Below are positions 43,483 through 62,810 of a stretch of DNA of 64,000 nucleotides, in pieces. The translations under genes were made by a program, and so were the position numbers. This DNA is from Octopus vulgaris (lineage: Eukaryota). The stretch spans positions 2,294,001 to 2,358,000 of the forward strand of contig OX597821.1 in the NCBI GenBank assembly GCA_951406725.2, read 5' to 3'. Below the pieces are notes generated by a model that was given only the letters and a program-made list of their open reading frames with translations, did not search any database and was not told the origin of the DNA. The number at the start of each line of letters is the position of its first letter. The first letter of the stretch is position 1.

Positions 43483-43838
43483 GATTAAGAGGAATCACCA
43501 CTAAAGTGGACACCTAATATGCTAAACATAGACGTCAAATCGCCATTACCACGAAGAATGTATTCTAAGGAAGAATATCAGCAAAACGCCAAAATTTAAA
43601 AATGAGCATGACAAATGAAAATATACGAAATAAAAAACGATTACCTACGTACCAATATCTACGATTTCGGTTGAGCCTTCTCTATCTAGTTCTGGAAATT
43701 GTGTTTTGTAAGAGACAGACTACGCTGACGATCATGAAAATATCTGCGTGTTTGCATACGTAGATATTAACAGGTGAAACCATTGGTACGTAGCTAATCG
43801 TTTTTATTTCGTATATTTCCATTTGTCTTCCTCATTTG
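43483..43838. mobile_element. Fold-back element with HHR
   Basis: Inverted arms 43600-43656 and 43782-43837, a tail of about 115 bp on the left arm, and microsatellite on both sides. Confidence 0.75.
43720..43793 (+). ncRNA. Type I hammerhead ribozyme, long stem II with decayed base
   Basis: CTACG-CTGACGA-[tcatg..aatatctgcgt/acgtagatatt..caggt]-GAA-ACCATTGGT-A-CGTAG. Stem I is 5 bp. Confidence 0.8.
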
Positions 43839-45067
43839 TATACATACATACATACATACATACATACATACATACATACATATATATATATATATATATA
43901 TATATATATATGTATGTATGTATGTATGTATGTATGTATGTATATATACTTACTTACATATATGTGTGTGTGTTTGTGTGCAAATAAATAAAACTATATA
44001 CACATGTGTATACTTTGTTATATATTTACTATATATTCACACACACACACACACAGGCGAACGCATAGATACACATTCATGCACATATAGTTAGGTATCT
44101 ATGTCTCTATGTATATATATATATATATATATATGTATGTATGTGTGTGTGTGTGAATAGATATATGTTATATAGGACAGCATATTCTCTTGTACAGACG
44201 TACAGTCTGAGAGATATCGTTATACATTTGCAGAAGTATGTAAAAACGGTTAAACATATACACATTCAATGTAACAAAGGAAGTATATACCATAAAATAA
44301 TGAAATCATGTCACTAAATAGACACATGTGTAGATATCAGTTAGCAGAAATGAATAATTGAACAGGTTTTTGAAGAGATAACAGATAATGTCTAGACAGC
44401 ATTTACCATAAATTTTTCTTGTGTTTAATGCAATAAAAAATGAAACTATAGGAAAATGAAAAAAAGGAAACAATATTTCTGTTTATAAACGAGCAAATAT
44501 CTCAAGAGCGATTCGAAAATTATTCAGTTAATAAAAATGTATAATATTGTATTTTCACTGTTTTTAGTTGAATGTATGAGAAATATTCTATATTTTCAAT
44601 TTGCATAATATGAGAACGCGAGTCTGAAGTTTTTATTTTCTTCTCGTAAAATGGAGCAAATATTATTTATTCATCTCACATGTGATGTTTCGAGTATAAT
44701 ACACGTTTTCAACATTAACCGGTTGCGACAGGTGAGTTGATTTAGTTTCCGAAATATTCGTGGTTGAAATGTACATCATGAGAGAATAGAGAAAATGTAA
44801 TAATGTAAAACAGACGCAGTACGCGCGCACATACACGCACACACACAGAGATGTATATATATATATACATATATATATATATATATATATATATATATAT
44901 ATATATATATATATATATATATATATATATATATATATATATATATATATAATATATATACATATATATATATATATATATATATATATATATATAAATA
45001 TAAATATATATATATATATATATATATATATATATATACATATTTATATATATATATCGCTCATTTC

Positions 45068-45463
45068 TCTTTTACTCTTTTATTTTTACTTGTTTCAGTC
45101 ATTTGACTGCGGCCATGCTGGAGCACCGCCTTTACTCGAGCACATCGACCCTAGGAATTATTCTTTGTAAGCCTATTACTTATTCTTTCGGTCTCTTTTG
45201 CCTAACCGCTAGGCTATGGGGAAGTAAACACATCAGCATCGGTTGTCAAGTAATGTTGGGGGGACAAACATAAACACACAAATACACAAAAACATATATA
45301 TACATATAGATATATACGACGGGCTTCTTTCAGTTTCCGTTTACCAAATCCACTCACAAGGCTTTGTTCGACCCCATGCTATAGTAGAAGACACTTGCCA
45401 AATGTGCCACACAGTGGGACTGAAAACGTAACCATGTGGTTGGTAAGCAAGCTACTTAGCACA
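45068..45463 (-). mobile_element. SINE family 1
   Basis: Matches the family along its length. Confidence 0.85.
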
Positions 45464-46399
45464 CACACACACATACATACGAACATACAAATACGCACTA
45501 ACATAGCTTAAAGAATGTACAAAATAAAATGAAGCGAGCAAGTAACCGCTGATTCGGAAGAATATCGCTTTGTGTTGAAAACTATACTACATTACATTTC
45601 TGAACTGGAATCCTCATTTTATTTAAACTTGACTAATAAGGCAGCACCATTCGCATGCATTAAATGAACCAAAAAAACCATATATTCATCATCTACTTAA
45701 TATTTCGAGCATAATACCCTTTTCAACTTTAAGTGATTATACGATAGAATTGTGTATGAGTTTGCGATTTTTTCGTGATTAGAATGCACACCATGTAACA
45801 CAATCGATTCCGATACAAATCACTTTACTCGATTACCATATTTCGTCTTCCCTTTCATTGTTCAACTAAGTAAAATATATTTCTCACCATTTACAAATGC
45901 TCTAACTGTACAATTATTGGCAGCGTTGACCCGACTATAGAAAGTCATCTCTATCTCATTATTATTTCATTTTTCAGATTCAATACAAAATCTGAATATG
46001 TGTTCTGACACAACCAAAGAAAATATTATATATATCTGTATGTAAATATGTGTGTGTGTGTGTGTGTGTGTGTGTGTGTGTGTGTGTGTGTGTGTGTGTG
46101 TGTGTGTCACTTTATGTGTATGTGTGTATATTTAAAGCGATGTTTATGTAGATGTTTCTTTGTCTTCGGTCATAGATATTTGATATCTGCGTGTCTGTAT
46201 TTCAGCGTCCAGAAGACGACGGAAAACACGAATTTGTCGGAGGAGAAAAGGGAGATAATGAAGTAGTAATAGGTGAAGAAGAGAAAGAATGAATGAATGA
46301 ATGAAGTAAGAGTAACTCAGAGAATGTAATTTGTTTTAAGCATTTTGAAGTATGGCTTTGACAGAAGATCCATGATTCCTTTCGCTGCAGTCTCTCTGC

Positions 46400-59183: not shown

Positions 59184-62100
59184 AAACGATTTCTGTTCAA
59201 TCTGCGTTCAGCTCCATTTCTTCAATTCACCAATAATGTTATATATATATATATATATATATATATAACCTACGATATACTTACATATACGAAAGTATAC
59301 ATATATATATATGCACGTATGCACGCAACCAGTTTAAACTGCCCGTCTTCAAAATCCTCGTGCGATATGGTCCGAGATCTGGAATTATCCAGAACATTTT
59401 TGCAACTTTATTTTGACTTTTTGTCTTCTCTCCTGGTGCTGTATGAATATTTAATGTGGTTTTAGAGTGAAGTATTGACTGCTATTATATACTCTTAGAT
59501 ACCCAAAATTATAATTAGATATATATATATATATATATATATGTATGTATATATATACATATGTATGTATGTATGTATGTATGTTTGAGTTTGCGTAGGC
59601 GTATGTATACATAAAGTTAGAGAGCAAGGTAGCTAAGTCGGTAGATAGATGCATAAATCATTCGAAATAAGTCGTTGAGAACCGAAACGAATGTGAAGCC
59701 ATGCAATAATCTGCGACACCGAAGTATTGCATTAGTGGAATTTCAAAAAAAGGACAATATCTTCACATATCCACATTTCCACACGCTTCATTAGAACTAG
59801 CGGTTCACAATTTCCATCTAATTGCTTTCTCTTCTACTTCACGACATTTGCTCATTGCAAGCAAGAAGAACAACAGCAATAAGAACGGCAGGTAGTACAG
59901 ACAAAACAGGAAATAAAAATAAAAATAAACGTTAAAGAAAAAATATAATACGTAAATAACATACGAGCCGAAAGTAAAATAGTACCTGGAGAGAAGAGAG
60001 AGAACACTAGGAATGTCTGAATTATATGCAGTATATGCATATGTGTGTATATGTCAATACACACACACATATATATATATATATATATATATATATATAT
60101 ATATATATATATATATGTATGTATGTATACATTTATATATTCATTATATATATGAATATATATGTGTGCGTATATATATATACATAAATATTATCTATAC
60201 ATATACACAGACAAACATATATATGTACGTATTTATGTGCCCCCGCGTGCACCCGCAACCACACACGCACGCAAAACACATTTTCCAACATATATGTTCT
60301 TATTCACACAGACATATATTGTATATGTATGTGTGTATATATATATATATATATATATATATATATATATATATATATATATATATATATATATATATAT
60401 ATATATATATATGTATGTATGTGTGTGTGTATGTGAGTAAACGAAATGTATAAAGGACGGAAATATAATAGTCAGGGAAATAAACGAGAAAAGGATAATG
60501 GAAATAGGAAAAGAAAAGCTATATATATTTATGCAAATACATATATACATATACATAGATACATACAAAGATATATACATACGTACATACATACATACAT
60601 ACATACATACATATATATATATATATATATATATGTATATATATATATATATATATATATATATATATATATATATATATATATATATATATATATATTT
60701 AAGTACATTCATGTAGATGCATATGCGGAAGAATGAAAATATAGAGAAGAAAAAGATTTGGCATTCAATGGAATGGTTCGGATGTACGCTGATTACCGTT
60801 GACATCAACAACCGACATTTCCAATTCTACTATTAGTGTTCTGATTTCAAAGAACATTGTCCTTTCTGAGAAATTCCATGACATTAACAGATAGCAATGC
60901 GTTCTGACAAAGATTTAAGATATAACCTCTATCGACGTCAGCAAAAAAAAGGAAATAAGATTTTAAAAAAATCAAAAAAATCTGAAGCCACCAATGCAGG
61001 AAAAGAAAACGAAAAAAAAAAGTGTAAGAAAAATAACTAAAAATGGGGAATATAAAAATTAAAGGTGGAAGCGTTCGTGGAAAGAATAAAGAGAAAAAGG
61101 AAGACGAAATAATGACAATACTCCATGTGAAAGAGTCTGTCTTTTTTTTATCACTATCCTATTCTCCCTTCTCTCTCTTTCTCTCTCTCTCTCCTCTCAC
61201 TCCTTCTCTGATTCACTATCTCTGTGTATGAACGAATATTCAAGCGTATATATATACGTATGTATATATATATATATATATATATATATATATATACACA
61301 TGTATATACATATAAATATGTGTATATATGTACATGTATACACACACACACATACACACATACACACACACACACACACACACCCATATATATATATATA
61401 TATATATATATATATATATATATATATATATATATATATATATATATATAGATATAGATATATATATTTGTACGCGAAACAGTTAAAAGTTAAGTAAGAA
61501 AAACGTCTGTATGTAGATTTATGTATATTATATATATATGGGGTGGGTGTATATATATTCACAGGCTTTTGTTTTCACTTAACTTTTACATGTCTCACTA
61601 TTCTGACGTTGGTCATGCTCGTGCACAACCTTGACTGTTTTAGTCGAAGAAAGCAACAACAATATATAATCTTATTGAAAGTTTCCGTTTGCTGAAGCGT
61701 TAAGTTGCGAGCACCAAAACACAGTAAAGGGATCTAGCACTCACACACACAAACACATACGCAAATATATTCATACAATGAGTTGCTACACTTGTTTTAG
61801 TCTACCATATCTGCTGACGAGTCTATATGGGATCGACATGTATATCTTGTATATGATACTGGATAATCGAAAACTATATAGAATTCAATTCATTCTTTTT
61901 ATCTGAAATACTGTTAGAGAGCCATGAATACCCTTAGTTATGTTGATTCTACATTCAGTTTACATGAATTACACTTGTGTCTGACGTATTCTCAGCTACA
62001 TCCAGAATGTTATGTCTTTTATGGAATAAGTGAATACACATCGTTAAACGACGGAGGTCCACACATGTCGTTCGATTCTAACAGACTACACTTGTGAATA

Positions 62101-62399
62101 TATATATGTACAACGGCAAGAAAGTGAAATTAGAAAAAAAGGCATAATATAATAATTGAGCAACAATCGTAGAATTTCATAATGCATACTCGACAGATGG
62201 AACGAAAAGAAACGGTAAATGACTTGGAAACCATGTCTCTCTCTCTCCACCCTCTCCCCCTCTCTCTATGTATATATATATATAAATAGAGAGAGAGAGA
62301 GAAAGTAAGAGAGAGGGATACATATATGTGCGTATATATGTATACAGACAGGCAGACACACACTCAGATATATATATATATATATATATATATATATAT

Positions 62400-62810
62400 A
62401 TAGTTATCGCCATACTAATATGGCATTCTTATAAAAATAAGAATAAAGCTGACCGCTTATTAGCTCCATGAAGCCATCGCCTTAAGTTAGCTATTTGATA
62501 CACAAACTGTATCCATATAACCTTCGAACAAGGGAGGTCAGTCGCTCCACACTACTTGACCGACAGCTACAGACGTCTGTAGCTGTCGGTCAAGTAGTGT
62601 GGAGCGACTGACCTCCCTTGTTCGAAGGTTATATGGATACAGTTTGTGTATCAAATAGCTAACTTAAGGCGATGGCTTCATGGAGCTAATAAGCGGTCAG
62701 CTTTATTCTTATTTTTATAAGAATGCCATATTAGTATGGCGATAACTATTATTTTCCGGGAACGCTGCCGTGTTCTCTTTTAGAGAGACTTAGTAATTTT
62801 AATATTTCTA
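62400..62810. mobile_element. Perfect 350-bp palindrome plus tail of about 60 bp between TA tracts
   Basis: 62400-62574 is the reverse complement of 62575-62749 with no spacer (centre cagac|gtctg). Confidence 0.9.

Follow-up and report, generated by a model that had tools for sequence, protein, structure and literature searches.

The window analysed here, 64,000 nt of Octopus vulgaris DNA (contig OX597821.1, positions 2,294,001 to 2,358,000), contains six loci, representing families A to F, at which two repeat arms stand head to head and only one side carries a tail. The repeats were mapped by masked self-BLAST of the window, with microsatellites masked, and the same comparison revealed no partner arm for three further copies (C1, C2 and D3). 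(TA)n or TATACA adjoins all 15 outer ends examined. The one-sided extension, or tail, measures 63–320 nt across the six loci, and the short arms begin 63–320 nt further in, at AT-rich positions that appear to share a few bases with the (TA)n target. In families A to E the end of the long arm lies 105–229 nt from the predicted cut of a hammerhead ribozyme. Family F (32232..32513), which lies in (TA)n, retains no ribozyme and was excluded from the counts below.

These stubs are likely short, non-coding, mirror-image remnants, the pseudo-LTR ends of Penelope-like retroelements. Six-frame translations inspected by eye contain no reverse transcriptase or GIY-YIG reading frame in or beside the stubs, which are too short for one, so that membership of the Penelope-like group rests on the layout and the ribozyme. 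Self-BLAST found no direct tandem copies (pseudo-LTRs) within any stub, and target-site duplications are unreadable inside microsatellites. Non-LTR retrozymes, which are defined as head-to-tail tandem units with a hammerhead in each (bioRxiv 10.64898/2026.07.22.740005), were considered and rejected: every copy is single or head to head, with no head-to-tail tandems.

Hammerhead motifs in families A to E

A relaxed motif scan detected four type I hammerhead motifs with a perfect core (A, B, C1 and C2), compared to none in each of 10 shuffles. The core CUGANGA...GAAA...UH with three stems is also perfect in C3 and C4; copy D2 and family E carry a U4C core (CCGA), and the core of D1 is more decayed. 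A second scan, whose thresholds were chosen after the family E motif had been spotted by eye, fails to pick up A, D, C3 and C4. Each of the five families with a ribozyme has a palindromic stem III, and helix III is 8–9 nt long in families A to D. Five of the seven ribozyme segments fold no better than shuffled sequences (|z| < 1), and motif A reaches z = −2.6. No hammerhead appears among the Rfam matches listed (150 of 386), all of which are sub-threshold, microsatellite-driven miRNA matches, nor was one matched in an Rfam search with locus B alone. The hammerheads are genuine as sequence motifs, with self-cleavage after H17 a prediction. Offsets are given relative to this predicted cut, H17 being −1.

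In family A (43482..43837), arm A1 (43657..43837, plus strand) holds the type I motif at 43720..43793 (plus strand), with stem I CTACG/CGTAG, the core CTGACGA at 43725, a long stem II, GAAA, stem III ACCATTGGT and H17 at 43788. A1 passes its own ribozyme to about −131, and its 3′ end, at +49, lies in TATACA/(TACA)n. Arm A2 (43482..43656, minus strand) has the long tail, with its 3′ end at (TA)n, at +167. The original prediction held that repeat breakpoints coincide with stem III or with the cleavage site, and the inverted match 43601–43656/43782–43836 (91%) does stop inside stem III: it ends at A43782 within ACCATTGGT (43779–43787), 7 nt inclusive from H17, which places the 5′ end of A2 at −7. 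However, adjacent to the junction A2 has 7 extra bases in agreement with the 3′ strand of stem II, for which chance is about 0.005, and the arm therefore probably goes on past a 16-nt ATT/ATT deletion to a true end near −32. An antisense minimal hammerhead candidate at 43657–43690 was rejected, its core being too degenerate.

Family B (57472..59516) is split by a younger insertion. Its arm B1 (57472..57776, minus strand; long tail, +229) passes the ribozyme and extends to the (TA)n in which the family C insertion is nested. The type I motif (57693..57751, minus strand) has stem I ATTCCA/TGGAAT, the core CTGATGA at 57745, stem III ATCCAGGAT and H17 at 57699. On the other side of the insertion, a spacer (59269..59370) is likely to be the upstream part of B1, and is followed by arm B2 (59371..59516, plus strand; short tail, +140). 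As the original prediction had it, B2 starts in stem III: compared with the ribozyme of B1 it is exact to 59376 (−4), and again at 59371–59373 (−7 to −9), so that its 5′ end falls between −4 and −9.

All four copies of family C run through the cut. C1 (5630..5982, plus strand; H17 at 5765; stem III ACATATGT) passes it by at least 135 nt and C2 (19925..20264, minus strand; H17 at 20134) by at least 130 nt. The young, nested pair consists of C3 (57813..58504, minus strand; long tail, +220; H17 at 58033), which passes the cut to −471, and C4 (58500..59243, plus strand, including a 197-nt spacer; core at 59100; stem III ACACGTGT; H17 at 59173), which passes it to −673. C3 and C4 are 99.3% identical. 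Among family C copies that are 72–75% alike, the core and the palindromic stem III are kept, with a double change between ACATATGT and ACACGTGT. By comparison with public contigs, the sole deviant base, at 58040 in C3, is peculiar to the window. The family C pattern has no match in prokaryote genomes and none in viral contigs.

In family D, arm D2 (20614..20714, minus strand) contains the entire ribozyme (core CCGAAGA, H17 at 20656), and the homology between the arms stops 8–9 nt 5′ of the core. Its partner D1, preceded by a 27-nt spacer (20715..20905 together, plus strand), also contains the entire ribozyme (decayed core at 20749, H17 at 20800) and has a tail to +105. The solo copy D3 (54655..54762, minus strand) ends at (TA)n on its 3′ side and at −2, in a T run, on its 5′ side. 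The observation that the segment 54652–54762 matches the element at 20740 for just 2 nt 5′ of its cut is borne out; the overlap consists of two T and is at the level of chance microhomology (p about 0.1).

In family E, the short arm (62403..62574, minus strand) forms a perfect palindrome with the long arm (62575..63066, plus strand). The minimal hammerhead of this family, overlooked in the original prediction, lies on the long arm at 62928..62962 (plus strand), 384 nt further downstream than the centre of the palindrome, with stem I GTTT/AAAC, the core CCGACGA (U4C), an unpaired A, a 4-bp stem II, GAAA, stem III ACGT and H17 at 62958. The long arm passes it and ends at +108 in (TA)n, and the short arm is entirely upstream of it (−384 to −212). 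The perfect 344-nt palindrome 62403–62746 is indeed centred on ACGT followed by C, as had been noted, but its reading as a remnant of stem III is unsupported because the family E ribozyme lies elsewhere, with its cut at 62958. By chance, 74% of random centres fit some stem III of 2–8 nt, and 32% fit the 4-nt form. Matches to the family E pattern at two metagenome and six viral loci were taken as chance, the similarity extending no further than 17–25 nt.

Arm ends around the predicted cut

Twelve arms reach a cut site. Three of them (A2, B2 and D3) end 2–9 nt 5′ of the predicted cut, and the other nine (A1, B1, C1–C4, D1, D2 and the long arm of E), which the original prediction omitted, extend some 60 to 673 nt past it. 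Since 9 of the 12 arms run through, the ribozyme is likely at most a mild stopping point. Within 10 nt of the cut, three ends are seen for 0.32–0.39 expected under a constant truncation rate (p = 0.004–0.007), but this window was picked post hoc and the excess rests on three events. The p value rises to 0.03–0.04 at 20 nt and 0.07–0.11 at 30 nt; with A2 placed at −32, it is 0.04–0.06 at 10 nt and 0.14–0.18 at 20 nt. When the whole ribozyme is the target, four ends are seen for 2.4 expected (p = 0.22, 11 arms). The bases that match exactly 5′ of the cut number 7 in A2 (chance 0.0001) and 4 in B2 (chance 0.003). The proposed coincidence of breakpoints with stem III or the cut thus survives as three arm ends and a modest excess, and fails for the nine arms that pass through and for the family E palindrome.

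These figures leave some room for the view, which we hold to be possible though on the doubtful side, that the ends have no preference for the ribozyme: 5′ truncation is heavy, only 40–230 nt separate the ribozyme from the sites of priming, and the three near ends were a choice made by eye among a dozen. The passage of most arms through the cut, the p values of up to 0.07–0.18 obtained once the window is widened or A2 is put at −32, and the chance nature of the family E case agree with this view. Against it, three independent families end at most 9 nt from one landmark.

Public contigs bear on the same question in family C, a high-copy family. The depth upstream of the cut relative to downstream is 0.84, 0.79 and 0.98 (total range 0.79–0.98), with no clear drop, and falls more steadily from upstream of the ribozyme (four-bin ratios of 0.85–0.90 at 58024–58086 and 0.61–0.70 from 58117), which again favours the absence of preference. 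Most genomic copies of family C apparently pass the cut. Among the matches listed (21 of 217 rows), no loose end comes closer to the cut than 60 nt, the loose ends listed including those at 58500 and 58502. Two of the eight contig joints listed resume at +2 to +6 and +9 to +11, positions that belong to the 3′ strand of stem I (p about 0.03); lying within 11 nt of the cut, on its other side, they speak against the absence of preference, but when joints and places of 5′-side loose ends are pooled, only 2 of 15 are near the cut (p = 0.05). None of the contig pieces listed (32 of 9528) bridges the C3/C4 junction. The mapping is weak evidence either way, because it covers family C only, in contigs only and with part of the rows listed, and because depth is not copy number.

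Possible origins of the ends

The reading we prefer, to which we give about an even chance, is ordinary 5′ truncation through two target-primed reverse-transcription (TPRT) events, which usually proceed past the hammerhead and likely stop there only sometimes. By analogy with the Penelope family, an endonuclease would nick AT-rich DNA on both strands, a cDNA would be primed at each nick on the element RNA, and the two 5′-truncated cDNAs would be joined head to head. The small surplus of ends between −2 and −9 may reflect a pause of the reverse transcriptase at the folded ribozyme, whose palindromic helix III would be able to pair between two RNAs and is immediately backed by the long stem II. 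The template RNA need not be cut for such a pause, so the stop is probably independent of cleavage, and the inversion would not be seeded by stem III.

This scheme is close to what is described for EN+ Penelope-like insertions, in which strong 5′ truncation is found and an inverted, 5′-truncated copy is typical (PMC8557442). The insertions of the window share with them (Craig et al. 2021, PMC8557442; Arkhipova et al. 2013, PMC3846280) strong 5′ truncation, the inverted 5′ copy, the one-sided tail, junction palindromes and microsatellite targets. They differ in their tails (63–320 nt here versus 30–40 nt), and ORFs, partial tandems and target-site duplications are not demonstrated here. The passages of PMC8557442 and PMC3846280 considered here draw no relation between truncation points and the ribozyme.

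In the anole (Anolis carolinensis) element Poseidon, studied in vitro by Frangieh et al. (2024, PMC11167929), targets are likewise AT-rich, both strands are cut and extended, priming occurs within the RNA, on the downstream side of the ribozyme, and read-through of the ribozyme is the rule. However, the two start sites of Poseidon are fixed and close together, unlike those of the short arms here. Mutating the ribozyme leaves insertion of the anole element in vitro normal, and RNA-seq reads neither start nor end at the cut (PMC11167929).

The motifs themselves resemble the minimal hammerheads of metazoan Penelope-like elements described by Cervera and de la Pena (2014, PMC4209133): they are of type I, with a short helix I, a long or 4-bp helix II, an unpaired base after A9 (family E), a palindromic helix III suited to dimers, and pairs of motifs on opposite strands 100–700 nt apart. 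The 8–9-nt helix III of families A to D and the CCGA core of D and E set them apart.

It is unlikely that the ends result from cutting in vivo, with the reverse transcriptase either stopping at the 5′ end of a cut RNA (D3) or crossing the nick onto the upstream product held by the fold and then detaching within the helix III duplex (A2 and B2). The end of D3 coincides with the cut within chance microhomology, and the two contig joints in stem I lie on the side that a cut template permits. Self-cleavage and circularisation have been proposed for Penelope-like elements (PMC4209133), and in R2, which has an HDV-like ribozyme at the element 5′ end with cleavage shown in vitro, the 5′ junctions track the cleavage site (Eickbush et al. 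2013, PMC3774820). Unlike in R2, the hammerhead here is near the priming end and is passed by most copies. The original prediction took ribozyme-cut RNA as setting the template's 5′ end; as RNA cut at H17 lacks stem III, A2 (7 bases) and B2 (4 bases) are not simple run-off products, and only D3 fits run-off. An additional nick-crossing step is thus required in two of the three cases. Most arms pass the cut, the anole element is mostly templated by uncut RNA with no reads ending at the cut (PMC11167929), and families D and E have been copied with a CCGA core. The U4C change is reported to reduce activity considerably in vitro, although a viroid tolerates it in vivo (PMC3088659).

A specific form of this idea, which we regard as quite unlikely, is that the ends at −2 to −9 are genomic fossils of cleavage in vivo, within a dimeric particle whose two element RNAs pair through palindromic helix III: one RNA would be cut, its cDNA would cross the nick and stop in the helix III duplex, and the cDNA of the partner would pass. 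If this were true, head-to-head Penelope insertions would record which RNA was cut, and would be the first in vivo read-out of the function of these ribozymes.

The idea that palindromic stem III seeds cDNA fold-back to yield the inverted arm, also part of the original prediction, is hardly credible: a palindromic stem III is shared by all five families with a ribozyme, and palindromes at inverted junctions in Adineta vaga have been interpreted as self-priming (PMC3846280), but the symmetry should then centre on stem III, and it does so at none of the five head-to-head junctions with a located ribozyme, since in A and B the arm ending in stem III joins the far end of a partner with an entire ribozyme and more than 100 nt, the junctions lie at −471/−673 in C, about −60/−87 in D and −384 in E, and the centre of the E palindrome is not the family E ribozyme, which contradicts fold-back for these loci.

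Occasional stopping during ordinary truncation would bear on what hammerheads do in these elements. They are widespread in Penelope-like elements, yet dispensable for insertion in the sole in vitro system (PMC11167929), and are missing from successful Penelope-like clades (PMC8557442). If 5′ ends truly accumulated at the cut, genome sequence would provide inexpensive evidence that cleavage takes place in vivo. The window offers a weak hint and several counter-examples, and its value therefore lies, rather than in a result, in a testable prediction of the sign and width of a peak, and in five more ribozyme-bearing families.

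Architecture and family membership of the insertions

Pairs of arms arranged head to head are found at six loci (families A to F), in each of which the 3′ end of one arm extends 63–320 nt further than that of its partner. Three other copies are solo. (TA)n or TATACA adjoins all 15 of the outer ends examined. The arms of a pair are 84% to 100% identical, and the insertions therefore differ in age: a young family C pair (57777–59268) is nested in (TA)n between both arms of an older B insertion, 31 nt upstream of the B core. The six short arms start at internal AT-rich points (43837, 59516, 59243, 20614, 62403 and 32513), where a few bases match the (TA)n target by inspection. 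These starts resemble internal (twin) priming, not a fixed 30–40-nt tail site.

The layout matches that of endonuclease-bearing Penelope-like elements, as described in PMC8557442 and PMC3846280, and the hammerheads of the stubs are of the palindromic-helix-III kind reported for these elements (PMC4209133). Inspection of translations by eye showed no reverse transcriptase or endonuclease reading frame with the stubs, and their membership of the Penelope-like elements is for this reason likely only.

The surrounding DNA is AT-rich, microsatellite-rich and animal-like, with SINE-like repeats, which we take to be octopus-like in appearance. Translations judged by eye also indicate decayed Tc1/mariner-like transposase fragments (4198–5480, with likely terminal inverted repeats, 13049–14118 and 25148–25756) and a frameshifted, RTE-like non-LTR reverse transcriptase fragment with no link to the stubs (27650–28517). 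Three small imperfect inverted repeats are devoid of ribozyme motifs (12089–12176, whose spacer is (TA)n, 30710–30775 and 46921–46968).

Hammerhead motifs

The whole window was scanned for CUGANGA...GAAA...UH plus stems I and III, with 10 shuffles as control. Four perfect-core matches were obtained, compared to none in any shuffle, with H17, the base just 5′ of the predicted cut, at 5765 (+), 20134 (−), 43788 (+) and 57699 (−); when one mismatch is permitted, there are six matches, versus 0–4 in the shuffles. Alignment added motifs with H17 at 58033 (−) and 59173 (+), and a decayed twin at 20800 (+). No hammerhead was among the Rfam matches listed. The family C copies, though 72–75% alike, retain the core and G10.1–C11.1, as well as a stem III that is palindromic and carries a double change; contig comparison shows that the single non-palindromic base of one arm, C3 (58040), is private to that copy.

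A minimal motif of family E (62928–62962, +, H17 at 62958, core CCGACGA), absent from the original prediction, was seen by eye. With thresholds fixed after the sighting, local shuffles gave a strict match in 0/300 and any match in 1/300, and whole-window shuffles a strict match in 1/12. The CCGA core (U4C) occurs in two unrelated families, D (20698–20706, −) and E (62932–62938, +). Both D arms share this C, so the copied RNA already had C at position 4. The core is either a tolerated variant or a sign that mobility needs no intact core. The two arms of the family D palindrome (20742/20714) cease to match where helix I ends on its outer side, 8–9 nt 5′ of the core. Of the nine arms that read through the predicted cut, one D arm has its end at this distance from its core, the rest ending elsewhere or having no assignable position.

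Arm ends around the predicted cut

The proposal that breakpoints coincide with stem III or the cleavage site holds for three ends (H17 is −1, and the base that follows the predicted cut is +1): A2 stops at −7, mid stem III, B2 at −4 to −9, and D3 at −2, within a T run. It omitted, however, that 9 of the 12 arms reaching the predicted cut pass through it: A1 to −131, B1 to at least −77, C1 and C2 to at least −130, C3 to −471, C4 to −673, the long E arm to −384, and D1 and D2 to about −60 and −87, these two ends not being assignable to one arm or the other. The palindrome of family E (centre near 62573) is indeed centred on ACGT-C, but its stem III reading does not survive, as some such reading fits 74% of random centres and the family's own motif lies 384 nt downstream. 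No internal repeat in the family E copy of the window hints at a second ribozyme-bearing unit.

Under a constant-hazard model of the 12 arms, in which B1 is taken to extend to about −180 and the two D ends are averaged, three ends are seen in a 10-nt window for 0.32–0.39 expected (p 0.004–0.007), the window size having been picked after the data were seen; p is 0.03–0.04 at 20 nt and 0.07–0.11 at 30 nt. Seven more bases of A2 match stem II (p about 0.005), so that the arm probably slipped 16 nt from one ATT word to another and came to its end near −32. With A2 placed there, p becomes 0.04–0.06 (10 nt) and 0.14–0.18 (20 nt). A pause where the ribozyme is folded would explain the small excess of ends most simply, and we give it about an even chance; that there is no preference at all for stopping at the predicted cut is a more doubtful reading.

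Templates and public contigs

A study of a Penelope-like element in vitro (PMC11167929) describes nicking and extension of both target strands, and priming that begins within the RNA on the downstream side of the ribozyme; the dominant template there is RNA that has not been cut. The overlapping arms of the window would fit two cDNAs joined head to head. Ribozyme-cut RNA had been proposed to set the template's 5′ end. A2 and B2 hold 7 and 4 exact bases beyond the predicted cut (chance 0.0001 and 0.003), which does not fit this: cut RNA begins at +1, hence their templates were continuous across the cut, unless copying went on after a jump. Cleavage followed by cDNA synthesis across the nick would also accommodate such bases, but appears improbable. 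Seeding of fold-back by stem III, which predicts symmetry centred on that stem, is rejected, such symmetry being found at 0/5 junctions.

Family C is present in 20 of the 24 runs listed, and contigs of four runs were compared. Its summed depth reaches 10^4–10^6 in three large runs, where the ratios of six bins upstream to six downstream of the predicted cut are 0.84, 0.79 and 0.98, and the three-bin ratios 0.74, 1.24 and 0.74; a steadier fall begins upstream of the ribozyme. Contig depth is not a copy number, and from it one can say no more than that a dominant stop is not apparent. Among the loose ends listed (21 of 217), none lies within 60 nt of the predicted cut. Two of the eight joints listed resume at +2 to +6 and +9 to +11 (p about 0.03; 2/15, p = 0.05, when pooled with the loose-end places listed). 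Both sit 3′ of the predicted cut, inside stem I and outside stem III, and are compatible with a cut template or with a structural pause. One contig of run X1 has a loose end at 58150, 117 nt upstream of the predicted cut, with an orientation antisense to the ribozyme. It resembles a template-switch cDNA adaptor, and may mark where an antisense transcript begins or be an artefact of the adaptor.

A literature search, whose coverage excluded most subscription papers, figures and some supplements, returned no report tying Penelope 5′ ends to a hammerhead cut. The general idea of ribozyme-linked 5′ ends is already established for R2 (PMC3774820). The loci add further cases to an insertion type already on record, and give a weak and unproven hint that stops are linked to the ribozyme.
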